Source: Chiloscyllium plagiosum
Lineage: Eukaryota
Assembly: GCF_004010195.1 (NCBI RefSeq)
Contig: NC_057755.1
Span: forward strand, 1,353,306-1,417,305
Reading direction: 5' to 3'
DNA: 64,000 nt
In this document: positions 3,603-25,711 of the stretch, in pieces
Layout of the letters: each line of letters opens with the position of its first letter
Position numbering within the stretch: the stretch's first letter is position 1
Translations under genes and position numbers: made by a program
The notes under the pieces: model-generated
What the model was told of the DNA's origin: nothing
The model's database searches: none
The model's input: the letters and a program-made list of their open reading frames with translations, nothing else

Positions 3603-3719
3603 TCAATTATTGAATTCCTTATCTAACCAGAAGCTGGTGAGACCGATGTTCCAACCAGAGAGGGACAGTTGAAAGGCAGCAAAGAAAATTATTATCCAAT
3701 GATAACTGGACATGCAAGT
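3603..3719 (-). CDS. Terminal coding exon: MS4A TM4 (TCMSSYHWIIIFFAAFQLSLSGWNIGLTSFWLDKEFNN*)
   Basis: Acceptor gtttctgttctcttacag, phase 0; hydrophobic helix with the mid-helix Q/E typical of MS4A TM4; TGA at 3605-3603. Confidence 0.75.
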   Translation of the reverse strand, partial: TCMSSYHWIIIFFAAFQLSLSGWNIGLTSFWLDKEFNN

Positions 3720-6700
3720 CTGTAAGAGAACAGAAACATTGCCATGAACGGTGTGAAAATTGCATAATTACCCATCCCTAATTAACCAGAGGGCAGTTAA
3801 GAGTCAACCACATTGCAGGGGGAAGGGCTGGAGACACATAGAGGTCAGACCAGGTAAGGATGAGTTGATAAAACATGGCGCTGGAAAAAACACAGCAGTT
3901 CAGGCAGCATCTGAGGTGCCAGAGAGTTGACATTTTGGGCATAACCCTTCTTCAGGACGAGGGACGGGGAAGAGGGCTGAGAGATAAATAGAGGGAGGGA
4001 GAGTGGGGCTAGAGAAAACGTCGGTGGGATGGGAAAACGTAGATGATTTTGATAGGTTGGTGGGAAGTGTGGATCGGATAGGTGGAAAGAAAGATGGTCA
4101 GGGCAAAAGGGCGGAGCTTGCTAAGAGGTTTGGAGGGATGGGTAGATTTGGAAACTGGTGAATTCAGTGTCAAAGCCATGTGATTGTTGGTTCTCGAGAT
4201 GAAAGATGAGGTGTTCCTCCTCCAGTTTGTGGGTTGCCTTGAGTAGGCGGCGAAGGATGCACATGCAATCGAGGGAGTGGGAGGGGGAGTTGAAATGGAT
4301 GACGACAGGAATGTGAGGTTAGTTAGTTGTAAGGACCCGGAATGATCCCTGACCTGTTCTGCGATTTCAGCAAACAAAAACAAATTACCGCAGAAACTCA
4401 GCAGGTCTGTCAGCATCTGTGGAGAGAGAAACAGAGTCAACGTTTCAGGTCCTCGTTCTGAAAACGGGTCACAGAACTCTGAAAGTTATTTTCTCTCCCC
4501 ACAGATGTGGCCAGACCTGCTGTGTTTCTCCAGCAATTTTTGTTTGCTTGTTTCAAATCTCCAGTTCCTGATTTTGTTTCAGGTAAAGGTAAGGCGACAT
4601 TTACCTGAATAAGCCCTTCTTCAGGAATGAGGAAGGTGTGCCAAGCAGGCTAAGATAAAAGCTAGGGAGGAGGGACTTGGGGGAGGGGCATTGGGAATGC
4701 GATAGGTGGAAGGAGGTTCAGGTGTGGGTGATGGGCTGGAGAGGGGGTGGGGCGGAGAGGTCGTGAAGAAGTTTGCAGGTCAAGAAGGTGGTGCTGAGTC
4801 CGAGGGTTGGGACTGAGATAAGGTGGGGGGAGGGGAAATGAGAAAGCTGGAGAAATCTGCATTCATCCCTTGTGTTTGCAGAGTTCCTAGGCGGAAGATG
4901 AGGCACTCTTCCTCCAGGCATCATGTTGCCATGGTCTGGCGATGGAGGAGGCCAAGGACCTGCATGGGTAAGGCGACATTTACCTGAATAAGCCCTTCTT
5001 CAGGAATGAGGAAGGTGTGCCAAGCAGGCTAAGATAAAAGCTAGGGAGGAGGGACTTGGGGGAGGGGCATTGGGAATGCGATAGGTGGAAGGAGGTTCAG
5101 GTGTGGGTGATGGGCTGGAGAGGGGGTGGGGCGGAGAGGTCGTGAAGAAGTTTGCAGGTCAAGAAGGTGGTGCTGAGTCCGAGGGTTGGGACTGAGATAA
5201 GGTGGGGGGAGGGGAAATGAGGAAGCTGGAGAAATCTTCATTCATCCCTTGTGTTTGGAGGGTTCCTAGGCGGAAGATGAGGCGCTCTTCCCCCAGGCGT
5301 CGTGTTGCCATGGTCTGGCGATGGAGGAGTCCAAGGACCTGTATGTCCTTGCTGGAGTGGGAGGGGAGTTAAAGTGTTCACCCACGTGGCGGATGGGATG
5401 GTTGGTGCGGGTGTCCCAGAGGTGTTCTCTGAAACGCTCCATAAGTAGGTGGCCTGTCTCCCCAATGTAGAGGAGGCCGCATCGGGTGCAGCAGATGCAG
5501 TAAATGAGGTGCAGACGAATTTGTGACGGACATGGAAGGATCCCTTGGGGCCTTGGAGGGAAGTGAGGGGGGAGGTGTGGGCACAAGTTTTGCATTTCTT
5601 GCGGTTGCAGGGGAAGGTGCCGGGAGTGGAGGTTGGGTTAGTGGAGGGTGTGGATCTGATGAGGGAGTCACGGAGGCAGTGGTCTTTCCTGAATGCTGAT
5701 AGGGGAGGGGAGGGAAATATATCCTTGGTGGTGGGGTCTGTTTGGAGGTAGCAGAAATGACGAAGGATGAAACAATGTTTCTGGAGGTTGGTGGGGTGGT
5801 AGGTGAGGACCAGTGGGGTTCTGTCCTGGTGGCGACTGGAAGGGCGGGGTTCAAGGGCGGAGGACTGGGAAGTGGAGGAAATGCGGTGGAGAGCATCGTC
5901 AACCACGTCTGAGGGAAAATTACGGTCTTTAAAGAAGGAGGCCATCTGGGTTGTTCAGTATTGGAATTGGTCCTCCTGGGAGCAGATGTGGTGGAGGCGA
6001 AGGAATTGGGAATATTGGGTAGGCGTTTTTACAGGGGGCAGGGTGGGAGGAGGTGTAATCTAGGTAGCTGTGGGAGTCAGTCCCAGGACTCCTCCTTGGC
6101 ACACCTTCTTCATTCCTGAAGAAGGGCTTATGCCCGAAACGTCGATTCTCCTGCTCCTTGGATGCTGCCTGACCTGCTGCCTTTTTCCAGCAAAACATTT
6201 TTCAGCTCTGATCTCCAGCATCTGCAGTCCTCACTTTCTCCTCAGGTAAAGGTAGCAGTTTCTGGCATGAGTGAACTACTTTTTTTCCCTGACAATCAAC
6301 AACGTTTTTCGGCCCTTCCCCATTTGACTTAATTCCAGGTTTTTATTCAGTTCAAATTCAACCATGGCGGGTTTGAATGCAGGTCCCCAGAATTTTACCT
6401 TGGCTTCTAGTTTCACAGTCTAGCAATAATGTCATTAACTCATCACTTGCCCAGTGAGTGAGGAATTTAGCTTTGTTGACAGTATTCACTGTATAGGCAA
6501 AAGTGAGCACTGCAGATGCTGGAAATCAGAGTGCAGATTTGAGTGTTGCTGGAAAAGCACAGCAGGTCAGGCAGCATCCGCTGAGCAGGAAAATCGACGT
6601 TTTGGGCAAAAGCCCTTCATTCTGTTTCCCTCTTGATAGTTGCTGCCAGACCAGATGAGTTTCTGTGAGCAATTTCCATTTTGCTTCCAGATTTCCAGCA

Positions 6701-9700
6701 TCCATAATTCTTCATTTCGCTCCAGAAATTGCACACCTCTGAAGAATGTGGGATTTAACCCTGGGTCTCCTGATGCAAGGGTAGGGACACTATCACTGCA
6801 TCGTAAGTGTTCTCAGCCAATGGTGTACAATGCTAGGCACACTGAAATTAATCGATTAGGCCAGAAAATCTGTCCCCCTTTCATTATTCACCATCAGCTG
6901 TAGCCATCCCTCGATTCCCAAGAGAACGAATCTCGTTTCTTCTTATGCTTATTTACTTCATACAATGGCAGAGACGAAAAGATTAAAAGTTGAGCTGCAA
7001 ACCATTTGATGACGTTCTCCCATAGCCAACAGGTTACAGAGTGAGATGTTGAACCAGAATTGTCATAGAAGAATAGAAGTTGAAACTTTATTGCTGGAAC
7101 AGCACAGCAGGTCAGGCAGCATCCAGGGAACAGGAGATTCGACGTTTCGGGCACAGGCCCTTCTTCAGGTTCCTGAAGAAGGGCCTGTGCCCGAAACGTC
7201 GAATCTCCTGTTCCCTGGATGCTGCCTGACCTGCTGTGCTGTTCCAGCAATAAAGTTTCAACTTTGATCTCCAGCATCTGCAGACCTCACTTTCTCCTCC
7301 ATAGAAGAATAGAATCCTTACTGTGCGGAAGCAGGCCATTCAGCCCATCAAGTGTACACTGACCCGCCAAAGAGCATCACACCGACCCTATCCCTGTAAC
7401 CCCTGTGTTTGCCATGGCCAAATCCACCTAGCCCACATATCTGTGGACCCTATAGGGCAATTTCATATGGCCAATCCACATAGCCCACATATCCCTGCAC
7501 CCTATGGGGCAATTTCGCATGGCCAATCCCCCTAACCTGCATGGCTTGGGATTGTGGAAGGAAACCAAAGGGAACCCACATAGACACAGAGTATGCGCAA
7601 ACCTCCATGCATGCAGTCACCTGTGCGTGGAATTGAACCTGCATTCCTGGTACAGTGAGGCAGCAATACTAACCTCTGAGCCACCATACCAATTACGCTT
7701 GAAGTATGAGAAAGAAAGTCAGACAGCAAGCCCAGAATTATGTATCAAAAACGAATTTGGATGACCTCATTCACAAAAATACAAAGCATCTTTCGACATT
7801 AGTAGGAAATGTAAATATGGTATTGTTTTGTTTCCTGTATTCTCCTGGCAACGGATTGGGGTGGTCCTTTGAAAAATAACAATTGTGAAAGGACTTGCTG
7901 GGGTTTTAGAAACAAGTTACTGGTGCACATTGGTTTCATGTTCACACCATTGGTTTTGTTTCAAACAGCAGTGAAAGCCCTTGGTCAGTTTTCATCGAAG
8001 GAAAAATGAAGCATGAATCCAACGATGTATTTTTACTGGAAGCATAAAAAGGGGTGGCATGGCAGATCAGTGGTTAGCGCTGCTACTGCACAGTGCCAGG
8101 GAGCCGGGTTTAATTCCAGCTTTGAACGACTGTCTGTATGGAGTTTGCTCGATCTCCCAGTGTCTGCGTAGTTTTCCTCTGGGTGCTCTGGCTTTCTCCC
8201 GCAGTCCAAAGATGTGCAGGTTAGCGTGGAGTGGCCAAACTAAATTGTCCATAGTGTTCAGGGATGTGCAGGTTAGGGTAGATTGGCTGTGCTAAACTAC
8301 CCATGGTGTTCAGTGATATGCAGGTTAGGGTGGATTGGCTGTGCTAAATTGGCCCGTAGTGTTCAGGGATGCATACGCGAAGTGCATTTGCCAGGGGTAA
8401 ATGTAGAGTAATAGAGTCAGGGAATGGGTCCAGGTGGGATACTCTTCGGACGATCAGTGTGGACTTTTGGGCGGAGGGTTTGTTTCCACACAGTAGGGAC
8501 TCTATTTAAGGGCATCCGTGGGTCCATACCCACAATATTATGTCGAATTCTGGGCCCTATACGTTTTTGAGGAATGACTGGTGGTATGGTTTTGAGGAAC
8601 TGCAAAGTCTGATCATTGACTTCAGAAAGAAAGCAGGAGAACAAGCCCCACCTACACCAATGGAGCCGAGGTTGAGAACATCAAATTCTTGGGAGTGACA
8701 ATAACTGTCAATCTGTCCTGGACTTCCCAAGTAGATGCAATAGCCAAGAAGGCACAACAAAGGCGCTTCTTCCTCAGGTGGCTCAGGAAGTTCAGCATGT
8801 CCAAAGGATCCTCACCAACTTTTACAGATGCACCATTGAAAGTATAGTGTCCAGGTGAAGAACAGCCTTGTATGGCAACTGCTCTGTCCAGGACTGTCAA
8901 ATACTTCAGAAAGTTGTGTGCACCAGCCAGACTATCACAGAAGGGAAGCTCCTCCATGGACTCTATTTACACTTTTCATTACTGTGGAAAGGCTGCCATC
9001 ATTGTCAAGGACTCCTCCCATCCCCCCATTAGTACTCTCCTACACACCTCCTCCATATGGCAGAAGATACAGAAGCTTGAACACACACACACCAGCAGGC
9101 TCAGGAACAGTTTCTTCTGTGCTGTTGTTAGACTGCTGAATGGATCTCTCTGACTTCATATAATGTCAATTTGGCTCATATTGATCTTGCTTGAGACACG
9201 TTCCATGCAGTGTAACTTGTATGACTAACTCTGTAGAAGCAGTCTATGATCTGTATGCAACCTATGATCTGTCTGTCCTGCTCGCAAAACAAAGCTTTTC
9301 ACTGTACTAAGGTTCATCTGAGTATAATAAATTAAAGTCAAAATTCAACATCTGAGCAAATTCAAGCAATACTCCTTTGGTATGTGGGTCTGATTTTACT
9401 GAAACAATCGGAAGAAATGCAGTGAAACATAATGAGACGGAGAAGACAATTCTACTCTTGGGTGAATCAGGAAATAGCAGGCACAGTATTGAAATAAGCA
9501 TTTGAGATCGAAATTAAGAGAAGTGAATCTTAGAGAATGGCATTAATATATGGAATTCCATACCCCAGAGAGCTGCGCAGATTGAGTCACTAAATATATT
9601 AAAGGCTGAGATAGATGGTTTGTGAAACCATACGCAAAGTAAAAGCCTAGGGAACAGGGTGGTAGATGGAGTTGAATTCAGTATTATGGTTTTCTTGATC

Positions 9701-12700
9701 CTATTGAATAGGACATATTGGCCGAGCCCAACTCCTAACTACAATGGTCTTCTCTTGTCACAAAGCTGGTCTTTTTTTTTACTAAAAGCTGCTCCTTTTC
9801 CTAAAAATACTGCGTCTTTGGTTTTTCTTAAAAGGCTCGTAAACCAACTCCCAGTTCCGATTTGACTGGTTTGGTACAGAGATTAAAGGGTATTGAGAGA
9901 GCTTTTTGTTTGTATGTAAACAGATGCGACTTCAGGCCAAAGTGGTCATGTTTTAGAAGTGACTTGTATAATGTTAGCGAGTGGTCAGCTCTCTAGTAGA
10001 GCAGTTCAGACCAGCACTCGTTAGTAGTTCAACAGTGAGCTGTGTGGAAACAGGGTCTCTCCCCCTGTCTGCCCTTCTAACTTCAACCTGTAAGCATCTG
10101 TTCCAGTTTTACTGTATTTTTTGGGGGGGTTGCTTATTGGGACTGTTGTGCACATTGGGAACAGCATAATTAAGTCCAGTTTGGATAGCCTGATTTCTGT
10201 AGGGGTTCTTGGTATTTAATTGCGTAATTTTGTGAATAAATTTTTGTCTGTTTTAAAACCTGGTAGTCAACGTAGGTAACCTACTCCATGTAATTTTCAC
10301 TGTACACTTACCGAAACAAATTGCAAAGCTATGATCTGGGATGCTTGCTTAAGAATATTTTGAGCGGTCTGGCCTAGTCCAAAACACTCTCATGGACATT
10401 GTGCAATTGTCTAATATGTGTGACCGCAAATATTTATCTCTTTCATTTACTTGACTTGAGTGAATGCAAAATGAGCTGAGATGTAAAGCGGTTTGCACGC
10501 TTACTATTGCCTTGTTAATAGGAAGATCATGAGACCTCGGAGCATAGAGTTATACAATAGGGAAACAGACATTTAAGTGCAACCCATCCATGCCGACCAA
10601 GTTTCCCAAACTAAACCATTCCCACTTGCCTGTGTTTGTCCCATATCCCGCAAAACCTTTTGTATTCATGTTCCTTTCAAAATCTCTTTTAAATGTTGCA
10701 ACTGGACTTGCATCTACCACTTCCTCTGCATGAAAAAGCTGTCCCACAGGCTCCTTTTAAATCTTTATTCTCGCAACTTAAAAATATGGCCCCTAGTTTT
10801 GAATTCCACCACCTTAGGGTAAAGAAAAGACCTTTGCTATTCACCTCACCTACACTCCTCATAATTTTATAAACCTTGGTAAGGTCACTCCTCAACCTCC
10901 TGTTCTCCTGCGAAATAAGTGCCAGCCTATTATTTTAGAAATCAACCCTCCAGTCCTGGCAACACCTTGATAAATCTGTTCTGAACCCTCTCCATTGACT
11001 CATCAAGTCTTTCCACCATTCAATGAGATCATGGCTGATCTGGCAATCTTCAGTTTCAACCTCGTGGTTTTTTTCCCAAAGTCCATAATTTCTTCACTGA
11101 TTCAAAAAACTGTTTGTCTCAACATTCAATAAGGACGCATGGGATACAAGGAAATCTGGCTTTCTGGATACAGAATTGGTTGGCCCATGGCAGATAGAGG
11201 GTGGTAGTATTTGGAAAACAATCAGCCTGAAGCTCAGTGACCAGGGGTGCGCCAAAGGGGTCTGTTCTGGGACCTCTGCTCTTTGTGATTTTTCTAAATG
11301 CCTTGGATGAGGAAATGCAAGGATGGATTCATAAGTTTGCCAACGACCTGAAAGTTGGTAGAGTTGCAGATAGTGTGGAGGGCTGTTGTAAGTTGCAACG
11401 GGACATCGACAGGATGCAGACCTCGGCTGATAAGTGGCAGATGGAGTTCAACTTGAAAAAAGTGTGAAGTGATTCCTTTTGGAAGGTTGAATTTAAATGC
11501 AGATTACAGGGCTAAAGGTAGGATTCTTGGCAGTGTACAGGAACAGAATGATCTTGGGATCCACATCCATAGATCCTTCAAAGTTGACACCCAAGCTGAT
11601 AGGATTGCTAAGAAGGCGCATGCTATGTTGACTTTCATTAGCAGGGAGATTGAGTTTAAGAGCTGCGAGGTTACGCTGCAGCTCTATAAAGCCCTGTTGA
11701 GACCACACTTGGAATATTTTGTTCCGTTCTGGTCGCCATATTTTAGGAAGGATGTGAAAGCTTTAGAGAGGGTGCAGAGAAGATTTACCAGAATGGCTAC
11801 CTGAAATGGAAGGCATGTTTTATGAAGAAAGGTTGAGGGAGCTAGGGCTTTTTAAATTGGAGTGAAGAAGGATGAGACGTGACTTGATAGAGGTGCACAA
11901 GATGATGAGAGGCATTGATAGAGTGGAAAACCAGAGACTTTTGTCGAGGGCAAAAATGGCTATCACGAGGAGACATAATTATAAGGTGATTGGAGGAAGG
12001 TTTGGGAGATGGCAGTTTTAGGTTCTTTACTCTGAATGATGAATATGTGGGGAATACACTGCCTGCAGAGGTGGTATAGTCAGATACATTAGGGACATTT
12101 AATCAACTCTTGGATAGGCACATGGATGTTAGGAAAATGAAGGGTACGTAGGTTAATTTGATCTTAGAGTAGGATAAAAGGTCGGCATACCATAGAGGGC
12201 TGAAGGGCCTGCACTGTGTCAAACTGTTCTATATTCTATGTACTTCACAATGTAACTCTACAGCAGTCTGCAGTGAGAAATGGCACAGATTCACTGTCTC
12301 CTGAGGGATGAAATATATCTTTATCCCTGCTTTAAATGGGCACCCCCTTACTCCGAGATAATGGAAACTAGACCTAGGCTCTCCGGCAGGGAGAAGAAAT
12401 GTCTCAACATCAAGTCCTGCAGCATGGAAACAGGCTGATATCTAGACGCAGTGTGTATTAGGACAGGAAGCTGCATGTCAAAGAGGAGAGATTTAGTGTC
12501 AACAATGCTACTATCAGGCAAGAGTTATGGTTAACAGGCATCTCATCATTGCCCAGCAAGAATCTCAGGTCAATACCTCCAGCTTCGGTGGAAAATGTAG
12601 CTCGTTCCTCCAGAACTTGAGATAGGCCTCGTTGGCTGTGGGAAATAATCTCCCAGATTATTCCCACAGCCCACATCAGTCAGGCCCTTATCAGACGCCA

Positions 12701-13830
12701 CCTTTAGGGAGAGGGAAGACCAGAGGACAATTATAGGATGATCAGACCCATCATCAGATTTGGAAAAATGCTGAGATAGTGAAGTTGTAAGGCAAGACGT
12801 GGTATCAGAGACAGGAAGAAAGGCATTTAAGGTGAAGAGGTTTGCATTCAAGCCTTTGGTATAACCAAATACAACAAACGTAAGTAAATATATTGACTGC
12901 AGAGGACAAATACACCCGATTAGGAAAGTATCTAGCAAGACATTCTGCTATTAATATCAATAAACATCAATAATATGTATTTAATTTAACGAAGGAGCTT
13001 CACACTTTAGGCAAATGCAATCCAAATTGAACGTTCTCACCTTAATGTCACTAGTCTGTTCAATTCCATTCCAGATTGATAATCCAATTGACGCTAAAGT
13101 AATCAGCAAACCTATGATGTTCGAGACAAGTACAATACGTAACTGGAAAGGAGAGGTCAATCATTGGTTAACACGAGTCATTGAGTCATGCAACATGAAA
13201 CAGAACCTTCAGTCCAACTAGTCAATGACGAACATAATCCCAAACTGATCTATTCCCACCTACCTGCTGCCCACCTGCCCATATCCCTCCAAACCTTTTC
13301 TATTCATCTACTTGTCTTTAAATATTATAATTGTATCTGCATCCTTCATTCCACACACGATCCACTCTCTGTGTAAAATATTTGCCTCTCATATCCTTTT
13401 TAAGTCTCCCTGCTCTCACCTACTGTTTCTTATGACCCTGCCTCACTAGTTACCTGATGAAGGAGCAGCGCTCTAAAAGTTATGTTATGGACGAGGCCAG
13501 ACCACACAAAACATTCTTAAGCACGCAGCCCAGACCATAACTTTGCAATTTGTTTTGGTAAATGTACAGTGAAAATTACCCAGAGGAAGATAGCGAGGTT
13601 GACTACTCGATTAAAAACAAATAAAAATGTATTCACAAAATTGCAAAGTGAAACACCAAGAACAAAATAAGGAACCGCTACAGAACTCAGTCTATCAAAA
13701 TGAGGCTTCATTATGCTGTTCCGAATACATACAACAGTTGCAATAAGCAAACACCCTTAGAAACCAGTATAAATAAATGGAACAGATGTTTAGATGTTGA
13801 AGTTAGAAGGGCAGAGAGAGAGAAAAAGAG

Positions 13831-13918
<88 letters not shown>

Positions 13919-16900
13919 TCCAAACAGCTCACTCTTGAACTCCCAACTAGCTGGAGAGCCCTTTCGTTCTAGAGGTCACTTCTAAAACACTGGCCTGAAG
14001 TCTTTTCTGTGTATATATAAAGAAAAAGGCTTATAAACACCATTTAATCTCTGTACCAAACCAGTCTAATCAGCACCGAGAGCGGCTTATTACCCCTTTG
14101 AAAAAACCAAGGATATAGTATCCTTGAGAAAAGGAACAGCTTTTAGAAATAAGAAACGAGCTTTGTGACAGCTAGTGCTTCCAAATACACCTGTTGCACC
14201 ATAACCTGGTGTTGTTGCACTTTTAACTTTGTTCACCTTAAAGGTGTGACCCCTAGTCTTAAAAATGTCTTTCCTATGGAAAAGACAACTACCATTAACT
14301 CTATCTGTACCACTCATTATTTTATAAACTTCTACAAGGTCGTCTCTCAAACTCTTACACTCCAGTCAAAAAAGTCCCAGTCAACCAGCCTCTATTATAA
14401 TTCAAACCCTCCATTCCTGGCAACAGCCTGGTAAATTTCGTTTGAACGCTTTCCAGCTTAATAATAACCTTCATATAACAGGGCAACCAGAACGGGAGAC
14501 AGTACTCCAGAAGAGGCCTCACCAATATCCCATACACCCACAATCCTATACTTCCCAACTCTTATATCAATGAACTGAGCAATGAAGATAAAAGTGATAA
14601 ATGCCTTTTTATCCACACTGTCTACATATGACACAAACTGCAAAGAAGTCGACAGCATGCAAACAGCCCTTATCCATGCTGCCCAGTATTCAAAATTAAA
14701 CTAGTTCCATTTAGAGTCATAGAGATGTACATCACTTTGCTCCAACTCATCCATGTCGATCAGACATCCGAAAGTAATTTGGTTCCATTTGCCAACATTT
14801 GGCCCACTCCCTCTAAACACTTTCTATTCATGTACTTACCCAGATGCCTTTTAAATGTTGTAATTGTACCAGCCTCCACCACCTCCTCTGGCAGCTTGTT
14901 CCATACACACACCACTCTCTGCGTGAAAATTATGTCCTTCAAATCTTTGTTATTTCACCTTAAACTTCCTTTTGGACTCTCCTACCCTGGCATAAAGACC
15001 CGGGATATTCACCCTATCCCTATCCCTCTCACGATTTTATAAACTCTGTAAGTTCGGCCCTCAGCCGCTGATGCTCCAGAGAAAAAAAAAACCCCAGTCT
15101 ATTTCAGCCTGTCCCTGTAGCTCAAACACTCTATCCTTAAACTATTTTCTGAACCCTTTCAAGTATCTTCTTTCCGAAAGGAGGGAGATAAGAATTGAAT
15201 GCAGCATTCCAAAAGTGGCCTAACCAATGTCCTGCGCAGCCACAACATGACCTTTCAACTTCTATAGTCAATGCGCTGGCCAGTAAAGGCTTGGGTGTCA
15301 AACACTTCACTAAGGATAGAGAGAAGGTCATATATGAACACCTGAAGATAGTTGGACATTATTTTACATTGAATAAACTCGACCACTTAATCACCAAAGA
15401 TACAATACCTTAAATTTTTCACTTATCCTGAGGGGTAACAAAGGAATCATTCCTATGACACAAAACTGCAACAGAAAAGAGAAAACACACACAAATTAGA
15501 TAAAAGTATTGTGATCTCTTGTGTGTCAGACAGAAAACCTCCCTCATATAAATTGTCTCAGTCAATGCAACTGCAGAGTTTGTATTTAAAATTGTTTAAA
15601 ATAAGGTATCTCATTAATCAGAAGGAAATTGCCCCATTCTGATTGCCTGGTTTCAGCTCAGTCATTCTTTTGTGAGATGCAGGGTTACAACTCCTCAGAT
15701 ACTGAGGCAGCTTATGTCCAAAAGCAGCAGGAACTGAACAATAGCGGGACTTGGAATGAAAAATAGCAAGTATAAAGGTTTATAAAATCTTGAGGGGCCC
15801 GGATAGGGTGAATCGACAAGGTCTTTTCCCTGGAGTGGGGCAGTCTAGTACTGGAGGGCATAGGTTTCGGATGAGAGGTGCAAGGTCTAAAAGAGACCTA
15901 AGGGGCAACTTTTTTCACACAGAAGTTGGTGCGTGTATGGAATGGGCTGTCAACGGAATACGTGGAGGCTGATACAATTGAAAGCCTTCTGGCTGGGCAA
16001 ATGAATAGGGGGTTTAGAGGGATATGGGTCATGTGCAGACAAATGGGACTAGATTAGGTTACAATATCTGGCCGGTATGCACGAGTTGGACCGAAAAGTT
16101 TGTACATGTCTAAGGCTCGAAGACTAAGTAACATTCAAGCATCAGTCAATGACTGGGCACTGCATGTTGGCATAAGGTTAAGATTATATTTCAAATCAAC
16201 TTGGTCAACATGCCACACCAAAACGAGATGTTTGCACTTCTCCATTTAATAGTGCAGCAAATTATAGAATTACAGAGGAACACAGCAATTAAGGTAAGCC
16301 TACACTATCAGAGCAATTCCAAAGTGATGACACTACCTCGAGATCTCCCAAAAACATGAACCCATGTCAATCCTATCCAAATCCTACTGATCAGCCCTGA
16401 AACAAACAAAGACCAAGCCTACTTTTTGTTTCCTTCCAAAGTCTCCCACAGCCCCGCATCAACTCTACAGCAAGAGTATTGTGTGCAGTTCTGGAATCCA
16501 CATTGTAGAAGGGATGTGATGGCATAGGAGAGGGCGCAGAGGAGAATTTTACCTGAACTAGAGGGTTGCAATCACCAACAACAATTGGACATACTTGGGT
16601 TTGTTTTCCTTAGAGGAGACCAAGAGAGGATGTGTCAGAGGTGTGTAAAATTATGATGGATACAGACAAGAAGGAACATTTCCAGTTGGTGCAGGGGTCA
16701 ATAACTGGAGCATAGATTAAAGGTAGCATGTTCAGAAATGATGCATGGAAATCATTTTTTTACCAAGAGGGTAGTGGGAATCTGCAACTGTAAGAGTGGT
16801 AAAGGCAGAAACCGTCATATCTTTTAAGAACTATTAATAAGGCATGCAAGGCTGTGAGCTAAGTGCTGCAAAATGGGATCATTATAGAATCATCGAGTTG

Positions 16901-19900
16901 TACAGTTGAAACAGACCTTTTGACAATGCTGACCAGATATCCTAAATTAATCTACACCTGTTTGCCACCGTTTGGCCAATATCCCTCTAAGAAATTCCTG
17001 TTTTTGTACACATCCAGAGGCCTTTTAAATGTTGGAGTTTTCCTAATCTCAATAACTTCCTTTGGCAGCCCATTCCATACATGGACCACCTCTGTGTGAA
17101 AAAGTGACGACTCAAATTCCTTTTAAATTTTTCCCCTCTCACCCTAAACCAATGTCCTCTAGTTCTGGTCACCCCCACTCTGGACAAAGACCTTGGCAAT
17201 TCACGCTATGCTTGCCCCTCAAGATTTTATAAACCTCTATAAGCCTCTGAAGCTGCAGTGAGAACAGTCCAAACCTATTCAGCGTCTCCCTGGAGCTCAA
17301 ACCCTCCAACCCTGGCAACATTCTTGTAAATCTTCCCTGAACCATTTCACGTTTAATAACATTTTTCCTATAGCAGGGAGACTAGAATTGAATGCAGTAT
17401 TCGAAGTGTCCTGTACAACCACAACATGACATCCCAACTCTTCTACTGAATTGGGTGCTTCTTTTTGACTGGCGTGGACATGATGTGATGATTGGCTGAA
17501 GGGTCTTATTCTGTAGTAGATATCCATGAATCTATCGCTATATTTATCACTATAAAACATAGCTTCTTATGATATGTGAGATCCTTGACACAAATAAATC
17601 TGTCCTGCTCCACCCTGTATCTCTGTATCAGTCCTAACCCAAATCACCATCCAGTTTTCTACAATTAGACCCTTTTAATTTTTCTTTATTTAATTTGATT
17701 TATTATTGTCACGTGTACCTTGGTAAAGTTTTATTTTGCGTTGCAGTACAGGAAGATCATATCATACGAAATGTATGAGTAATAGAACAGAGCGAGGAAT
17801 ACAACATTACTGCTGCAGAGAAGACGCACAAAGACTGAGACCAACATGACATTTAAAACTGGAAAGGGTCCAATCTGAACTAATAACAGCAGGGAAGAAT
17901 CTGTTACTATGTGTGTTTAAGCTTTTGTATCTTCTGCCGGACGAAAGGGATTGGAAAAGATTATAACCGAGTGGGAGGGGGCATTGATGTTAGCTTCCTT
18001 TCTGGAGTAGCAGGAAGTATAGGTGGAGTCAATAGATGGGATGTTGGTTTATGGATAAAGAATGTTTTTCCCATTTTCTTCTATAGCCCTAAATCAATTA
18101 CGAAGCAAACCTATCCCAGTAGTCCCATAATTGTAGCTACTGAACCCAAATTAGTCCCACTGCCCTAATTCCTCTTCTTAGTTATGTATCAATGCAAATT
18201 AAGTTCAATATCAGGGTCCAGTCTGAGACCCTGATCAATCCGCAATAGGACCAATTTAAAGACTCTTACCAGAACGCCAGACCACCATGGAATGCGGGCC
18301 TGTGCAAATCGGCTATGGGGCGTTAAAATCGCCGATGCAGCTCCCAAAACACTGATTGTGAAGCCCAAGTACATTTGGCTTATCTGTAGACAAGTACCAA
18401 AGCAAAATAGGACATCAGCAATGAACAGACATAAAGGTTTGGTGATTAGCAGACAATCAAGAATTCAATGGTTTTCTAAATCAACATCAGGCACATGGTA
18501 TTTCTAACTGAATAGACACCAAAAGCGAAAAATTGAATGGTTATGCTCCATATCGGAACAAACATTTAACAAGCATTTGGAGGTAATGTTCTTGAGGGTT
18601 TGTGACTGGCCTAACAATTCAGAAGTCCATAACAAAGCTTGGGACATGAATGCCAGTCCTACCAGGCATCTGTAATGAAATCATGAAACCATAACTGATT
18701 GTTGTAAAAGCCCAATTGGCCCGTATATGTATTTTAAAGGAAATAAAATCAATCTTCCATTCCTGTAATGACCTACTACAACAATGTGGTCGCCTCTGAC
18801 ATGCCTGTACTAGACACATCCATTAAGGACAATAAGGCATGGGTAAAATTAGCAATGCCCTTGAAAGAAAATATTTTATTTGGTTTAAGTTAAGAGAAGC
18901 TGCTGGATACACCATGGATTGTGTGAACTTATTGTGGTATTAAAGCATGCATTTTTTTCCTTTTTTTTTGAAGAGAGGTTTTAAGGCAGAGGTGATGAGC
19001 TGTCTACCACAGTCAAAAGGATAAACAGCCCAGCGAGGCGTTTAGTTTTTATTTAAAAAATTGGATCCATAGAAGCAGCCTGAAGGGGTGTGGGAAAACT
19101 CCCATTGAACCAAGGCTTTCTGGTTTAGCTTTCTGCAGTTGCTGTTGGGGTCTTGAAGAAGAGGAAGTTATTTTTTCTTCCCCTCTTTCAGTTACAGTCA
19201 AAAGCTGGGCTGTTCTTTTATTGCTACAGGAGTTGCATATGACACCGTCTGTTTTTGAATTTGCCTGTTTTTATGAAGCATGGGTTTGTGTGATGTTATT
19301 ACATTGGAACAGTTAATTCGTAATAGTTACTGATCTATCATTTTGTTAAATTTTCCAATGGAGTTATGTGAACCCAATTCCTTCTTAGTTTGTTGCATTT
19401 TAACAATAGTGGATGAATAAAGTGTGTTTGCTTAATGTCAAGTGTATGACAAATTCAATTGCATCTGGAGCGTAACACCTCAAGAGGAAATGGTCTAGAC
19501 CTCCTTCTGAAAAGTGTGAGCGGGTTTGGTCTGGTCCACAATAAGTTGATAACATTATTAATGGAATGGAGTTTTCCTTCTGCAACTGATTAGCGATGCT
19601 CATGAGAAAGCAATGCTATGATACAGTAGCACGGTGGCAATTTTAGTTTTATTGACAAAAAATGGGCACTGAAACATTTATAATGTTTTTACGGACATGG
19701 CACAAAATTAAAATGGTAGAGGCCTTTATATATCCTTCTGCTCGGAAGTCTAAAATGAAATAAAAATATTCAGTCTGTAATGGACACCGGAACACAATTG
19801 CATTTATACTGGAATGAGATAAAGTACGGAACACATAGTACGCTGATAATCTTTAAGATTTGTTTTCATTCATTCACAGGATGTGAGTAGTAATGGCCAA

Positions 19901-22900
19901 GACAGCGTTTGTTGACTATGCCTAATTGCCCAGAGGGCAGTTCAGAGTAAACCACGTTGCTGAAGCCACCTGAAGGCCAGACCAGGTACGGACAGCTGTT
20001 TCCTTCCCTATTGGACAATACAGGGCCAAATGGGTTTTCTCGACAATGTTCCACTGGGATCCGTTCTATGTCCTCTTTTGTTTCTCATGTATATAAATGA
20101 TTTGGATGAGAATATCCAAAGCATGACTAGCAAGTTTGTGGAATATTGTGTACAATTCTGGTCTCCTTCCAATCGGAAGGATGTTGTGGAACTTGAAAGG
20201 GTATAGAAAAGATTCACAAGGATGTTGCCAGGGTTGGAGGATTCGAACTACAGAGAAAGGCCGAATAGGCTGGGTCTGTTTTCCCTCGAGTGTCAGAGGC
20301 TGAGGGGTGACCTTATCGAGGTTTATAAATGGTGAGGGGCATGGATATGATAAATAGACAAAGTCTTTTCCCTGGGGTGGTGGAGTCCATAAGACGGCAG
20401 AAGTTCAAGGTGAGAGGGGCAAGATTTAAAAGGGACCGAATGGGGCATCTATTTCATGCAGAGGGTGGTGCATGTATGGAATGAGCTGCCAGAGGAAGTG
20501 GTGGAGGCGACTACAATTATAGCATTTAAAAGGCATCTGAATGGGTATATGAATAGGAAGGGTTTGGCGGGATATGGGCCAAGAGCTTGCAAATGGGACT
20601 AGATTAGGATATCTGGTCAGCATGAACGTGTTTGACTGAAACAGCACTGTTTCCGTGCTGTACATCTCTATGAGTCGAAGACAAAACGTTGGTGGCATAG
20701 TAGAAAATGAAGAAGGCTTCCTAAGATGACAATGGGATATTGATCAAACGGATCAATGGGCCGAAACATGGCAGATAGAGTTTAACCTGGATAAATGCGA
20801 GATATCCCATTTTGGTACAGCCAACAAGGGTTGGGCTTACACTATTAATGATAGGGGCAAACGTTGTAATTAAATTCTCATTGAGCACCAGTGGGATCTT
20901 TTTGCATCCATCTTTTGGAATACTCACTGAAGGATATCGTAGCTTTCCATCACGTCCATAGTCTTTGACTTTATTTTTACCTGAGAGAGATCAATGTACG
21001 GAAAACAGTTCATCATCAGAAAATCAAAATGGGTTTTTAGTATTCTATTAGCAATGTTCCAGCGCATTATTTGATCTTGCATTAAATCCCTACCTCCCGC
21101 CCAGATGAGACAAGAGTTTACTTCGAGGCATACAACATAGACAGAACCCTTTGGTCCATCGTGTCTATGCCAAACACCAAACATTTACCTGGAACTTGGT
21201 CGGTAACTTACTGCACACCCTGAAACTTGAAGCGCTCAACTCAATGCTTCATAAATGCTGTAAGAGTTTCTGCCAGTCCCACTCTCTCTGGCACAACCCC
21301 ATATTTCTACCACCCTCTAGGTGAAAAAATCTGCCCTCAGGTCAGTTACACATTACTTTAAACTTATACCCTCTTTAGGTACCTCTGCCATGGGGCGGTA
21401 ATTCCCATGATGCACTCTGTGCTGCCTTGCATACATTCTATTTCTGGGCCTGACCTTCCATGGAGAGCTCTGCCTCAAAATTCTCACAGACAGCACTTCC
21501 ATAGCAGTCACTCCGCACTTGCTGTCACAAGACAGGAATGTTCGAAGGACACAAAACTTCAGTGAGAGGCGACCAAATGAATGCATGTGTGTGAGTAAGA
21601 TGTGTAAGTAATTTGAGAGAGTAACAGGACAGCTTGGCAACTGAGTGAGGGGTCAGGATGGTAGCGTGTACGAGAGGTTGTAGAGTCATAGACATGTGCA
21701 GCACAGAACCAGACCCTTCAGTCTAACTCGTTCATGCTGACCAGATATTCTAAATTATTCTAATCTTGTTCGCCAGCACTTGGCACATATCCCTCTAAAC
21801 CCTTCTTATTCATATACCCATCCTGATGTCTTTCAATTGTACCAGCCTATTCATACACCCAGATGCTTTTAAATGTTGTGCCAGTCTCCACCACTTTCTC
21901 TGGCAGCTCATTCCATACACGCAACCCACTCTGTATGAAAAAGCTGCCCCTCAGTTCCTTTTTAAATCTTTCCCTTCTCACCTGAAACCCGTACCCTCTA
22001 GTTTCGGAATTCCCCACTCAGGGAAAGAAAGATCTTGGTTATAGACTCTAAGCAGGCCTCGTATGACTTTTATAAACCTCCATAAAATCAACCCTTCAAC
22101 CTCTGACACTCCAGGGAAAATATCTCTAGTCTATTCAGCCTCTCCCTGTAGCTGAAACACTCCAACCCTCACAACATCCTTGTCAATCTTTATAAGAAGT
22201 GTGAAGTGAGGACAAGGGGAGAATAGAGGGGAGGAACAGGGGAGGCGGTGGGGTTGATGTAGAGAGGGAGGGGGGAAGGCGATAAGTGGGGGTGAGAGAA
22301 GTGGAAGTTAGAGGGAAAGGGGTGAGGAGGGGAAGTGTGGCGAGGTGGAGAGTAAAAGGAATGAGGAGGGGAAGGGGATTGAATGAGGAGAGTCATAGGG
22401 ATGGGAAAGGAAGGTGAGGGGTGGGGATGGAAGAGGAGGGAAAATAGGTAAAGGAACGGGGAGGAAGACTGAGTTTGGATTGTCGGTTGAGGGTGTTTGA
22501 CACACCTTTATGCTCTAACTTTTCCTGGGTTACTCTCCAAGTAATCGTTTTTGAATCCTTCGAAGCTCCCTGATTCCAGCCTTTGATGTAATGGTTTCCG
22601 ATGCAGAGTAATCTGCCAATCATAAGATTCAACTGTCAGGCCATCTCCACATAGTCAGTGCATTGGAAACTTGGTGGGGCTAAACCTCCCTCATTCCTTG
22701 GCGTGATTGTTTTTCCAATCAGCTGGGTGTGTATCTGAATTTTGACAAGTACGACCAATACATTTTTCTGCTCACCGGACAAGTCCCTCGCAACTTGAGA
22801 TGCTGACCAGAATGTTAAAATACTCACGGACATTTGCTTTTACATTTCGCTTATTGATTGGCTGCTTTAACTCTGAATCTTGGTCATGATCAGGGCTCGC

Positions 22901-25417
22901 TCCTGACAATGCTCGTTCTTGATGACATAAGTAGCCCACTGATTGTTTCCTGAATCCATCAAGTTCATCAAGGTCCTGCACAGATAGGAATATCACTGAA
23001 GCTCTGTAACAGTATTCTGGATGTAAATCCACCACATGAACTACAGAAACTGCAGGGAGATTGATTATGCATTCCACATTCTCCAGAACAATGAAGGATG
23101 GGAAAAAAATGAATTCCTCTCTCCCGCACCCACCAGTCCAACCACCCAACCCCACCCCACCCCCAACACAGACATACTGATACACACACACACACAAGCA
23201 AAGAGTTCTGAAAGACAAATCTCTGAGGTGTGGAAGGAAAAAGATAATCTGAACAGAATTCATAAGGCAAGATCTTGTTCGACTCGTAGGGTTGAATGTT
23301 TGAGAAGTTTAAAGGGAGAGTTGATAAGGCAATGCATTTGATGTGGATGTTCTAAAATATATTGATAAGATTTCACTAGCTTCGAAAATAAAACCTTACA
23401 AGTCAAAAGAACAGAGCAAATCGGATTGGAAGTTCTCTCAAGTCTACACAGCCACCTGCTTACTTGACATACTTCCCCATGTCAACAGCACTAGCTCAAT
23501 CCTCCACACACTCAGTGACCCATTCATTGATATCAGAACTGAACCTATTAAAGGTATTTCCATGAAGAAGCATAACTGGTCTTCCCTGTGATTTACTCTA
23601 CTCCTTCGGAGGTTTCCAATGGATGCTATACTCCATACTTGTGGCGAGGTGGAGCTCATAAACATGGTGTGAAGTGGGGCTTTTGGGAAATCAAAGTGAA
23701 TTGAACATAATGACAGTTGACTCCATTGTAATTGATTAAATTTGAATATGGCTTGATGTAGGAAGCAGAGAGAGGTTGTTTGCTCTTGTTTTGGAATGGT
23801 TGCTGAGCATGTGGGGATGTGAAACTGTAAGATTGGCATTAAGTCATTTATGACCAAGCTGAGGAAATATTTCTTCATTGAACAGCTTTGGATTTGCCTC
23901 TGTCAGATTGTTGCGACGCTATTTAATTTTATCCATTATCGACAAATTAGTGTCTGTCAGGAAATTCTTATCTATGCCAAGTTGTCAGAGAACCTTAGTC
24001 AGGATCTTGACGGAACTGGTTTAAGGAGCAATATGATGTGCTCCTACTCATATCAGTTATGTGCTTTGCATTTGTTTCTTTTTCTGGAAAGAGGCACAAA
24101 TTCACAGGAAATGTTAACCAGCTTCACCGAATTGGTTTCTGTCACTAAGATCTTTGCTAACACCAGTAAATAATTGAATGAGACCTATTTCTGGAGAAGG
24201 ATAAGCTGCTGGAACCCCATGAAATCCCAAGTGCTTCCAATTAGTAAGGCACACAGACCAAGGGATACAAGATCATAAAGACCACAATATGTAGGAGTAG
24301 AATTAGGCCTTTCGGCCCATTGAGTAAGCTCTGCCATTCGATCATGACTGATACGTTTCTCAATTTAATTCTCCTGCCTTCTCCCCGTAACCTTACTAAG
24401 CATGAACCTATCTATCTTTGCCTGAAATCCAATCAATGACTTGGCCTCATCAGCATTCTGCGGCGATAATTTCTATGGATTCACCTCCCTCCAGCCCTAG
24501 ATGTTCCTCAGAAACATTCGTCAGCCACATGCGACCGAAATTCAGAAACCTTTTCCTACCGAGAAGGTTGAATTACATCCTCAAGCAACCTCTTATATTC
24601 AAGAGACAGCTCGGATGTACGAAGGGAATGTGAAAGAAATGTAAAACCTGAAAAATGTGGAGTTGATCCACACATCATTCCGACAACAGGAAATGGGAGG
24701 TCACAATGAAGAGAATCCCTACAGCGTGGAAACTGACGATTTGGCCCAACAAGTTCACACCAACATTCCGAAGAGCATGCCCCCACCGCCCCCCCCCCCA
24801 AACCGAGCCCCCAACTACCTTAACTCTGTCGCCCTGCATTTCCCAATGGCTAATCTATCTAGCCTACACATCCCTGGACACTATAGCCAGTTTAGCACGG
24901 CCAATCCACCCAGCCTGTACATCTTTGGATTATGGGACGAAACCGGAGCACCTGGGGAAAACCCACACAGACACGGAGAGAAGGTGCAAGCTCCACACAG
25001 ACACTTGTCTGAGGCTGGAATTGAACCAAGGTTCATGGTATCGTGAGGCAGCAGTGCTAACCAGTGAGCCCACAATACTCTGCGGTATTAACTTAGCACA
25101 GAGCAATCTACAGTTGCAAAGCAATCGCTTGGCTCGAAAAACACCAGTTGAGTTTTTGAGGAAGGAAACTTGAAATTTACCTCTTTCCCTATGAGCCTTT
25201 CCACCAAATCCATTCGGGGAATGGTTCCCAGAATATCCACAACCACGTTTAAAGCTTTCTTCTTGTCGTGGTAGAATTTCTTCAGCAGCTCCGCCACCTT
25301 CCAAGCATTAGCATTTTCTAGTTTGCCAGCTGGTATGCGATGATCGCCCAATAAGTACCTGAAGTGTTTCATCTCCTCGTCTGTCAAATCCTCTAGAATT
25401 TGCTGAATTTTCTCCAT
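3603..25417 (-). CDS. Spliced gene model: PYD-linker-MS4A/CD20-like four-TM protein, 275 aa; join of 25417-25181, 22975-22828, 20980-20928, 18383-18270, 15465-15409, 13142-13041, 3719-3603
   Basis: All introns are GT..AG with pyrimidine tracts, phases match at every junction (0,1,0,0,0,0), and the 828 nt have no internal stop. Translation: MEKIQQILEDLTDEEMKHFRYLLGDHRIPAGKLENANAWKVAELLKKFYHDKKKALNVVVDILGTIPRMDLVERLIGKE/DLDELDGFRKQSVGYLCHQERALSGASPDHDQDSELKQPINKRNVKANVR/KNKVKDYGRDGKLRYPS/ISQMYLGFTISVLGAASAILTPHSRFAQARIPWWSGVL/FCVIGMIPLLPLRISEKFK/LRIVLVSNIIGLLITLASIGLSIWNGIEQTSDIK/TCMSSYHWIIIFFAAFQLSLSGWNIGLTSFWLDKEFNN*. Confidence 0.75.
3870..4350 (-). mobile_element. Degenerate Penelope-like 3' fragment
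   Basis: Similar to 4600-5400; decayed hammerhead core cctgaagaagggttatgcccaaaatgtc on the minus strand. Confidence 0.65.
4592..6241 (-). mobile_element. Penelope-like element (RT C-terminus + GIY-YIG), internal 379-bp tandem duplication and inverted 3' terminus
   Basis: ORF remnants DRTPLVLTYHP, CNRKKCKTC, IYCICCTRCGLLYIGETG; TSD tcaggtaaaggta at 4579-4591 and 6242-6254. Confidence 0.9.
6116..6143 (+). ncRNA. Minimal type I hammerhead ribozyme motif
   Basis: CTGAAGA-A-GGGC(TTAT)GCCC-GAAAC-GTC at a Penelope terminus. Confidence 0.7.
7079..7299. mobile_element. Penelope-derived palindromic mini-element with hammerhead motifs on both strands
   Basis: Perfect 93-bp arms 7077-7169/7172-7264; TSD catagaagaatagaa at 7064-7078 and 7300-7314; plus-strand core at 7173-7200. 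Confidence 0.85.
7315..7690 (-). mobile_element. tRNA-derived SINE (shark HE1-like) with internal duplication
   Basis: tRNA-like head with A/B boxes near 7690-7630 on the minus strand; CR1-like tail. Confidence 0.75.
8051..8505 (+). mobile_element. tRNA-derived SINE with three ~52-bp internal repeats
   Basis: A-box tggcagatcagtgg, B-box ggtttaattcc; gatgtgcaggttagggtggattggctgtgctaaattg unit repeated 8211-8370. Confidence 0.8.
8590..9310 (+). mobile_element. Rex/Babar- or L2-like LINE 3' fragment
   Basis: Remnants KKAQQRRFFLRWLRKFSMS, LTNFYRCTIESI, SRLRNSFF. Confidence 0.7.
9756..10386 (+). mobile_element. Solo LTR
   Basis: TG...CA termini, 4-bp TSD ctct (9752-9755 / 10387-10390), internal AATAAA; reverse-complement homologue of 13483-14170. 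Confidence 0.8.
10540..10995 (-). mobile_element. CR1 LINE 3' fragment
   Basis: RSDLTKVYKIMR and TFKRDF remnants. Confidence 0.75.
11130..12240 (+). mobile_element. CR1 LINE 3' fragment
   Basis: [28 protein letters not shown]...[11 protein letters not shown]; ttctat tail. Confidence 0.9.
13041..13142 (-). CDS. Coding exon 6: MS4A TM3 (LRIVLVSNIIGLLITLASIGLSIWNGIEQTSDIK), 102 nt
   Basis: Acceptor cctctcctttccag, donor AAG|gtgaga; hydrophobic helix with the conserved MS4A TM3 Asn at exon position 8. Confidence 0.85.
13483..14170 (-). mobile_element. Solo LTR containing (GATA)n, inserted into a hammerhead-bearing Penelope terminus
   Basis: TG...CA termini, TSD gtta/gcta; the flanks rejoin as cctgatgaaggagcagcgctctaaaagctagtgcttccaaatac. 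Confidence 0.8.
13830..13918 (+). repeat. (GATA)n microsatellite
   Basis: Directly visible, about 21 units. Confidence 0.98.
14230..15290 (-). mobile_element. Two stacked CR1 fragments
   Basis: DDLVEVYKIM, LVRPLLEYC, FTQRVVCVWNKLPEEVVEAG remnants. Confidence 0.8.
15409..15465 (-). CDS. Coding exon 5: 57-nt MS4A TM2/intracellular loop exon (FCVIGMIPLLPLRISEKFK)
   Basis: Strong acceptor ttttctcttttctgttgcag, donor AAG|gtattg. 19 codons, phase 0/0, same length and position as the CD20 YIISGSLLAATEKNSRKCL segment (recalled, not aligned computationally). Confidence 0.82.
15770..17450. mobile_element. Cluster of short CR1 3' fragments on both strands
   Basis: GHRFR..RG, FFTQR and tail motifs at ~15770-16110 (+), ~16480-16870 (+) and ~16885-17450 (-). 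Confidence 0.7.
18270..18383 (-). CDS. Coding exon 4: MS4A TM1 and start of TM2 (ISQMYLG...IPWWSGVL), 114 nt
   Basis: Acceptor ttggtacttgtctacag, donor CTG|gtaaga. Qxx(L/I)G in TM1 and PxWxG at the exon end are MS4A/CD20-family motifs. Confidence 0.85.
18933..19542 (+). mobile_element. Degenerate solo LTR (related to 2646-3244)
   Basis: Shared blocks aaggcagagg, tttgaatttgcc, aataaa, ggtctggtcca; ends approximate. Confidence 0.5.
20050..20860 (+). mobile_element. Rearranged CR1 fragments
   Basis: [29 protein letters not shown] remnants. Confidence 0.75.
20928..20980 (-). CDS. Coding exon 3: basic juxtamembrane segment (R)KNKVKDYGRDGKLRYPS, 53 nt, phase 1->0
   Basis: Acceptor ttgatctctctcag, donor TCA|gtgagt; restores phase 0 for the TM1 exon. 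Confidence 0.7.
21683..22195 (-). mobile_element. CR1 3' fragment
   Basis: agagtcatagac tail and 3' RT remnants. Confidence 0.75.
22200..22470 (+). repeat. Purine (GA)-rich low-complexity tract
   Basis: Directly visible. Confidence 0.85.
22828..22975 (-). CDS. Coding exon 2: charged linker (DLDELDG...KANV), 148 nt, phase 0->1
   Basis: Acceptor ttcctatctgtgcag, donor C|gtgagt; open in the phase left by the PYD exon. Confidence 0.65.
24705..25075 (-). mobile_element. tRNA-derived SINE
   Basis: Same family as 8051-8505, reverse strand. Confidence 0.8.
25181..25417 (-). CDS. Coding exon 1: pyrin (PYD) death-fold domain, 79 aa
   Basis: Acceptor tatttctttcag, then GAAGTAATGG (good Kozak context); donor GAG|gtaaat, phase 0. 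The pattern LEDLTDEEMKHFRYLL...RIPAGKLENA...VAELL...Y...ALNVVVDIL..I.RMDL matches the PYD consensus. Confidence 0.88.
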
Positions 25418-25711
25418 TACTTCCTGAAAGAAATAGGGTGACACGCTGTACTTGTCATACAATATCATGTTGTATAACTTTCAAAGGGGATGAATAGTGA
25501 GACCGAGAGTTGGCAAAATGACTTCAAAGCTTGATTCAATGTGACTGTGTCTAATTTCCCATCGCCCCGTGCACATATCTCACTAACCTCATTGCCCACG
25601 AATTACAAAACGTTATCAATTTCAGTTTTGAACACTCCAAAGATGACACTAAAGAACATAAGAGCAAGTAGATGGAGTAGACAAGCAGGAAGCTGGAAGG
25701 CCACAACAGGT

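Follow-up and report, generated by a model that had tools for sequence, protein, structure and literature searches.

Does a run of small exons on the minus strand of a bamboo shark contig encode one protein that joins a pyrin domain (PYD) to a tetraspan membrane domain of the MS4A/CD20 type, and what might such a protein do? We analyzed a 64,000-nucleotide stretch of the Chiloscyllium plagiosum genome (contig NC_057755.1, positions 1,353,306 to 1,417,305; hereafter the window, whose own numbering is used below), for which an initial annotation made from the letters alone had proposed such a fusion. The gene in question is LOC122544060. Its product very probably comprises an N-terminal PYD, a linker of ~65 residues predicted to be disordered, a CD20-like four-helix domain and a 9-residue tail, and belongs to a family of nine genes in six galeomorph shark species. 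As an explanation of the whole, identity and mechanism together, we tentatively favor a membrane-tethered PYD signaling subunit, a reading that we place at a little under an even chance.

Gene model and exon plan

Joining seven minus-strand exons (25417-3603) yields a stop-free coding sequence of 275 codons (828 nt with the final TGA). Every internal exon border has AG before and GT after it, and the phases are compatible when the exons are joined by their coordinates. RefSeq protein XP_043538990.1 (P0049; LOC122544060 isoform X3, Chiloscyllium plagiosum, 280 aa) consists of MNEEV followed by exactly these 275 residues; an upstream exon supplies Met-Asn-Glu of the five extra residues, and six bases of the PYD exon supply the rest. 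A paralogue on the same contig, LOC122544135 (P0006; C46:7675297-7704976, 6.3 Mb off), has exons of 237/145/53/114/57/102/117 nt with AG/GT borders throughout and the same phases, and its rebuilt translation is identical to the RefSeq protein. Because a RefSeq protein ends with exactly the 275 residues and the paralogue repeats the exon plan, the seven-exon model is real, far beyond chance. The exons, splice sites, phases and reading frame first read from the letters are thereby borne out. The gene is not hidden, as had been thought: RefSeq models the same exons as LOC122544060, and UniProt names its relatives 'Pyrin domain-containing protein'. The proposed extent stood for the seven exons and failed at the start, since the PYD exon begins at 25423 and a further exon precedes it. 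The exons, including those of the annotated isoforms and with transmembrane segments abbreviated TM, are as follows.

29051-29043, minus: end of the upstream exon, ATGAATGAG then gtaaga; ATG AAT GAG gives Met-Asn-Glu in RefSeq isoforms X1, X3 and X4
25423-25181, minus: pyrin-domain exon; AG acceptor at 25425-25424, ATG at 25417, 79 codons, ending in phase 0, then gtaaat
22975-22828, minus: 148-nt exon of the linker; enters in phase 0 and leaves in phase 1; predicted disordered, with no match in Pfam
20980-20928, minus: 53-nt exon of the linker and juxtamembrane region; enters in phase 1 and leaves in phase 0; carries the conserved basic motif KDYGRDGKLRYPS
18383-18270, minus: exon of 114 nt encoding TM1, outer loop 1 and the first part of TM2; ends ...IPWWSGVL; positions 6 to ~41 of the CD20 hidden Markov model (HMM)
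15465-15409, minus: 57-nt exon; remainder of TM2 and a basic inner loop
13142-13041, minus: TM3 exon, 102 nt; an invariant Asn is residue 8 of the exon
12701-12577, minus: alternative exon of 125 nt, borders aaag-GTG...GGAG-gtattg; RefSeq isoforms X1 and X2, located by tblastn
3719-3603, minus: last coding exon; outer loop 2 (one conserved Cys), SYHW motif, TM4, 9-residue tail, TGA at 3605-3603

The upstream exon end agrees with the N-terminus MNEEVMEK of RefSeq proteins P0046 and P0049. The pattern ATGAAYGARGT has a single match in the window, at this exon end, and 27 of 100 shuffled sequences also give at least one match. Four isoforms of LOC122544060 are annotated (X1, 292 aa; X2, 287 aa; X3, 280 aa; X4, 246 aa). 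Inclusion of the alternative 125-nt exon in X1 and X2 shifts the frame, so that the last exon reads LACPVIIG followed by a stop and TM4 is lost, and X4 skips the TM3 exon (13142-13041). The four-helix form is the one common to relatives in other species.

The first exon encodes a pyrin domain

When exon 1 was searched against proteins, six bamboo and epaulette shark sequences of 274-288 aa came back. The top one was LOC122544060 isoform X2 (P0001), whose residues 1-79 are 100% identical to the exon. Against Pfam PYRIN (PF02758), the exon scores 56.3 bits (E 3.8e-15; cut-off 22.9) over profile positions 2-76 of 76. The six bamboo and epaulette shark proteins scanned first score 52-58 bits, and 8/8 aligned family members match. 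The DED profile gives 20-34 against its own cut-off of 35.9, below PYRIN. When a family profile was run against the Protein Data Bank (PDB), it matched the PYDs of NLRP6 (best, E 4.7e-8), AIM2, NLRP3, NLRP4 and ASC. AlphaFold models this part as helices at residues 2-9, 13-24, 30-33, 38-48, 52-65 and 69-76, with a predicted local distance difference test (pLDDT) of 76-85; the linker that follows (residues 80-151) falls below 50. By its profile match, which lies well over the cut-off and takes in the whole profile, exon 1 clearly encodes a pyrin domain, as the initial annotation had supposed.

The membrane half resembles the CD20 family

Downstream of the linker lie four hydrophobic segments, with 19-residue Kyte-Doolittle peaks of 1.47, 1.80, 2.37 and 1.64. 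Because basic residues gather before TM1 (5 lysines or arginines in 18 residues) and in the TM2-TM3 loop (3 in 8), the predicted topology has the N-terminus inside and hence a cytosolic PYD; together with the known topology of MS4A proteins, we infer that both ends are inside. The outer loops are very short, outer loop 2 having ~17 residues, and the C-terminal tail has nine.

Outer loop 1 lacks Cys, and outer loop 2 (window 3690-3719, minus) contains a single one. A Cys is present in outer loop 2 of every aligned family member (8/8), in an alignment column that is not always the same. This lone extracellular Cys could form an intermolecular disulfide.

Pfam CD20 (PF04103) matches 9/9 full-length family members at E 1.4e-9 to 4.5e-4, of which only 4/9 score over the cut-off of 27.9; the relatives of the window protein score 38.7, 34.0, 31.8, 28.1, 27.7, 26.6, 26.4 and 20.7 bits. 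With a profile of the membrane part against 177,635 PDB sequences, all eight matches at E <= 10 (8/8) were sarcospan, Fc-epsilon-RI beta or CD20, at E 0.022-0.13. The full-length AlphaFold model is unusable here (pLDDT 35-63 in the membrane part). With a model of the membrane part alone (pLDDT 61), Foldseek placed sarcospan, Fc-epsilon-RI beta and CD20 in 8 of the 10 top places (best E 0.045, TM-score 0.42-0.50). In VIA-align over 48,161 chains, Fc-epsilon-RI beta is the top natural chain (Z 9.7, root-mean-square deviation 4.2, 133 residues aligned), and the Z scores of solved CD20-family members (9.7, 9.3, 8.5 and 8.1) lie within the chance range of helical bundles, which reaches roughly 13. 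Among the ESM Atlas clusters listed, the best three are MS4A or CD20-bearing (score 0.87-0.89), a lead only. A word-based profile search with the membrane part returned three proteins, all of the same family, and five other single-exon or open-reading-frame pieces, too short for such a search, matched 0 Pfam families.

The exon plan may point the same way. In this gene and its paralogue, an exon for TM1 and half of TM2 is followed by a 57-nt exon, a TM3 exon and a TM4 exon, in what would be the typical MS4A order. Three details once singled out as MS4A-like are all present: one exon is 57 nt long, the TM3 exon has Asn as its eighth residue, and the TM4 exon (the last coding exon) contains IFFAAFQ. 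Six other CD20-type exon matches in the C. plagiosum genome end at HMM positions 40-44, and exon 4 here ends at ~41 by our estimate. No tight MS4A cluster was found at the locus, the closest CD20-type exon match lying at C46:3.40 Mb (E 0.11). From several weak but concordant results we conclude that the membrane half is a predicted divergent CD20-like tetraspan, and we name no subfamily for it. The earlier assignment to MS4A/CD20 holds for the four-helix CD20-like type, toward which each method points weakly; the Pfam cut-off is passed by 4/9 full-length members and missed by the window protein.

One gene rather than two

The frame contains no Met from the end of the PYD exon to TM1, and the two linker exons (148 and 53 nt) keep the frame only as a pair. 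Because a separate tetraspan would lack a start, the linker exons are paired and the paralogue has the same phases, the PYD and the tetraspan are, to judge from their sequence, one fused gene rather than two. A single-cell RNA run (X10) gave 0 reads on 5521-25520 from ~6% of the run, which says nothing on expression. Runs X5, X7 and X8, whose kind is unlabeled, cover the introns with exact contigs and behave as DNA.

In C. punctatum, the protein P0008 ('isoform X3', 231 aa, CD20 only) begins with a peptide that corresponds to the PYD exon (25308-25454, minus) read in another frame. P0008 is probably a mis-started or non-productive model and not a PYD-less protein.

Distribution and divergence among sharks

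The PYD-tetraspan design occurs in nine genes of six galeomorph species from three orders (Orectolobiformes, Lamniformes and Heterodontiformes): two genes each in C. plagiosum, C. punctatum and Hemiscyllium ocellatum, and one each in Stegostoma tigrinum, Carcharodon carcharias and Heterodontus francisci. An exhaustive scan at E <= 0.001 returned 35 proteins. Four of them align beyond the linker, and all four are family members (P0002, P0008, P0009 and P0011); P0012 is a short PYD-only bamboo shark fragment, a gecko PYD-death-domain protein (P0021) aligned to query position 146, and in the remaining 29 the match is confined to the PYD region. The library scanned holds one representative per 50% cluster and predicted proteins only, and does not imply absence from other sharks, rays or chimaeras. 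Outside sharks, no PYD-tetraspan was found in the searches made in this protein library; the suggested restriction to cartilaginous fish is consistent with a family met, within those searches, in sharks alone.

Across eight aligned sequences, 71 columns are invariant, among them WW.G in TM2 (W179, W180 and G182), the Asn in TM3 and SYHW before TM4. The linker ends in a conserved basic juxtamembrane motif, as far as the alignment tells, with six invariant positions in KDYGRDGKLR (K134, Y136, G137, K141, L142 and R143). Best conserved is the membrane part, with a mean column identity of 75% versus 64% overall. In a neutral, substitution-only simulation with 10% change per site, 2.4% of copies remained stop-free and 0.14% also kept splice sites and ATG intact; both paralogues and all orthologues are intact.

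For the C. plagiosum pair (271 codons), the Nei-Gojobori ratio of nonsynonymous to synonymous substitution (dN/dS) is 0.77 (dN 0.153, dS 0.198), with 0.67 in the PYD, 0.78 in the linker and 0.84 in the membrane part. The value fits relaxed constraint or diversifying selection, and the pair is no proof of purifying selection. Such fast paralogue evolution is frequent in regulators of host-pathogen conflict, and the PYD of this protein is accompanied by no known effector domain. The protein might be a membrane-bound decoy that, like the primate pyrin-only proteins, sequesters PYD partners at the membrane and damps signaling; TMEM176B, a relative of MS4A proteins, reportedly restrains the inflammasome. 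For a decoy, a conserved four-helix domain would be superfluous, yet no part of the protein is better conserved than the membrane part, and we consider this explanation quite unlikely. A membrane-tethered signaling subunit remains our preferred reading.

Pyrin-domain genes in the bamboo shark genome

A PYRIN profile run over the genome (3.56 Gb) gave seven candidates, all scored, of which four are PYD exons, a lower bound. Two are in the PYD-tetraspan genes, one is on contig C43 and one on C11. The C43 exon (C43:11929304-11929516; L013:5230-5598; 59.9 bits) has a death-domain exon 2.8 kb downstream (L013:8380-8688; 36 bits), and the locus is, by these domain matches, a predicted PYD-death-domain gene like gecko P0021. 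On C11, the PYD exon (C11:82467674-82467883; L014:5618-5935) precedes, by ~9.4 kb, a same-strand HIN-200 exon (C11:82477092-82477613; L017:5093-5614), which scores 55.3 bits against Pfam HIN (E 8.9e-15) and whose PDB matches (16/16) are p204, AIM2, IFI16, p202, MNDA or p205. The flanks were covered by 65 of the 95 listed frames, those from L017 and L018. Pairing the two exons by proximity, we find that the locus resembles an AIM2-like (PYHIN) gene, here in a shark; PYHIN proteins are said, in a 2024 abstract (PMC11054388), to occur only in mammals. Recent exon shuffling of the PYD was considered and rejected, as the PYD of the fusion has only 28-32% identity to these other two shark PYDs.

None of the 32 CARD matches in the genome lies near a PYD exon (0 of 32). 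None is on C43 or C46, and C11 has two, at distances of 32 and 79 Mb from its PYD exon. No PYD-CARD (ASC) gene was found in this assembly, and no family member contains a CARD either. These counts fit a small pyrin-domain repertoire in sharks. With only four PYD exons and no CARD exon nearby, the link to ASC and caspase-1 is weakened, the assumed partner ASC not having been found in this assembly.

If no PYD-CARD gene passes the signal to a caspase, the tetraspan could itself be the output. A cytosolic sensor, such as the shark PYD-HIN protein, might nucleate PYD filaments that recruit and cluster the tetraspan, which would then conduct ions or disturb the membrane; the pathway would end there and not at caspase-1. 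Consistent with such a membrane effector, invariant polar residues lie in or at the edges of the helices (the Asn in TM3, SYHW before TM4 and a Q or E in TM4), the very short outer loops speak against a ligand-binding ectodomain, and a link of MS4A and TMEM176 proteins to cation flux appears in the reference list of a phylogeny paper on the MS4A genes (PMC2826416). The solved CD20 structures are not known to show an obvious pore, and the model of the membrane part is of low confidence; we regard such an effector as unlikely.

A proposed membrane-tethered PYD subunit

We favor a membrane-tethered PYD subunit because MS4A proteins are oligomeric partners of other membrane receptors and PYDs act by polymerization. 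The tetraspan would serve as an oligomeric membrane anchor or co-receptor subunit, with the PYD as its output. Clustering of the tetraspan in the membrane would raise the local PYD concentration, and the concentrated PYDs could polymerize and recruit the genome's few other PYD proteins (PYD-death-domain and PYD-HIN). The protein would thus be a counterpart of Fc-epsilon-RI beta (MS4A2) in which the cytosolic immunoreceptor tyrosine-based activation motif (ITAM) has been exchanged for a death-fold domain. That clustering yields a PYD platform in this way is a possibility we take seriously, at well short of an even chance.

A number of results weigh against the reading. The PYD exon turned up no RNA dataset, and because no RNA evidence was seen, the splice joins rest on NCBI models and conservation. 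Isoforms X1/X2 and X4 break TM4 and TM3, respectively. The window protein scores 24.7 bits against Pfam CD20 (E 2.7e-5), under the cut-off of 27.9, and the match spans profile positions 6-100 of 156, that is, TM1-TM3 only. The AlphaFold model of the membrane part shows four helices at a mean pLDDT of 61, a low confidence, and the PDB and fold matches of this part are each insignificant alone (E >= 0.02; Z < ~13). At E <= 0.001, an HMMER search of 1.84 billion representatives reached no MS4A protein that lacks a PYD. The paralogue dN/dS of 0.77 is, as a rough estimate and not a formal test, not clearly below 1.

Some of these points raise the question of whether there is a working fusion at all. 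Predictors may have merged two transcription units, one of a pyrin-only gene and one of a tetraspan gene, or the gene may be functionless and drifting: no RNA was seen, dN/dS is near 1, several isoforms break the membrane domain, and the C. punctatum relative P0008 reads the PYD exon out of frame. The paralogue, however, has the same seven-exon plan and phases, and the same design recurs in nine genes of six species. A separate tetraspan would have no start codon, and frames and splice sites are intact against a neutral expectation of 0.14%. We judge an artifact or a drifting gene to be very improbable.

As to novelty, the literature listings and abstracts that we consulted contained no pyrin-MS4A/CD20 protein, and RefSeq and UniProt entries are labeled 'uncharacterized' or 'Pyrin domain-containing'; within these sources, the claim that no PYD-MS4A protein had been described stands. 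The family joins two known domains in a new, uncharacterized way and does not amount to an element of a new kind; it is already annotated in RefSeq. The origin of the MS4A genes has been placed in cartilaginous fish in a paper whose consulted parts mention no such fusion (PMC2826416).

If the product is indeed a membrane protein with a cytosolic PYD, death-fold polymerization would be wired straight to a tetraspan. MS4A proteins matter in immunity and disease (CD20, Fc-epsilon-RI beta and the Alzheimer-linked MS4A4A and MS4A6A), though little is understood of how they work; a naturally occurring fusion with a domain of defined assembly hints at a role for the tetraspan in oligomerization or membrane placement. 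Because the genome has few PYDs and ASC was not found, the family may account for a large share of shark PYD function. Going further, we speculate that galeomorph sharks have an ASC-free PYD network, in which a PYD-HIN DNA sensor and a PYD-death-domain adaptor are joined by PYD polymerization to PYD-MS4A tetraspans, and the signal is received or executed at the membrane. We hold this to be highly doubtful; if true, the pathway design would be one not known from vertebrates so far, and it would tie MS4A proteins functionally and directly to death-fold signaling.

Surroundings of the gene

The introns contain repeats of very high depth in DNA runs. Within the last intron, a 379-bp unit occurs twice at 4588-5345 with 97% identity, and (AGAT)23 lies at 13827-13918, in the intron between the 57-nt and TM3 exons. 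A Pfam scan of frames of at least 70 aa from 25535 onward (144 of 246) gave three matches, all to long interspersed nuclear elements (LINEs; one endonuclease fragment and two of reverse transcriptase); the remaining 102 frames span 684 to 25480. The LINE reverse-transcriptase and endonuclease fragments are located upstream of the gene, at 36909-37898 and 45682-47176, and an assembly gap of 128 N spans 54000-54127. Weak tblastn hints at 33620-33447 (E 0.012) and 52756-52667 (E 0.07) had no Pfam support and were dropped.

Comparison with known systems

To our knowledge, pyrin domains are known only from soluble sensors, adaptors and regulators. ASC, the pyrin-only proteins, the NLRPs and AIM2, all soluble, have in common with the shark protein a PYD of the Pfam PYRIN family. 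Unlike ASC, NLRPs and AIM2, the shark protein has its PYD on an integral membrane domain, with no CARD, NACHT or HIN in the same protein.

On the membrane side, sarcospan is the top PDB profile match to the shark tetraspan (E 0.022). Neither it nor TMEM176A/B, which have been grouped with MS4A (PMC2826416), has a death-fold domain, unlike the shark protein. The gene appears to share with CD20 (MS4A1) and other MS4A genes a CD20-like Pfam match and small phase-0 exons, including the 57-nt exon. CD20 has a long disulfide-bonded outer loop, whereas the shark outer loop 2 has ~17 residues and one Cys. The nearest parallel is Fc-epsilon-RI beta (MS4A2), the best natural structural match (Foldseek ranks 1-3; VIA-align Z 9.7; PDB profile E 0.036-0.045). 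Both would combine a four-helix CD20-family protein with a signaling element in a cytosolic tail; MS4A2 signals through a C-terminal ITAM, whereas the shark protein carries its PYD at the N-terminus, has almost no C-terminal tail and is 12-16% identical to MS4A2 in structural alignments.

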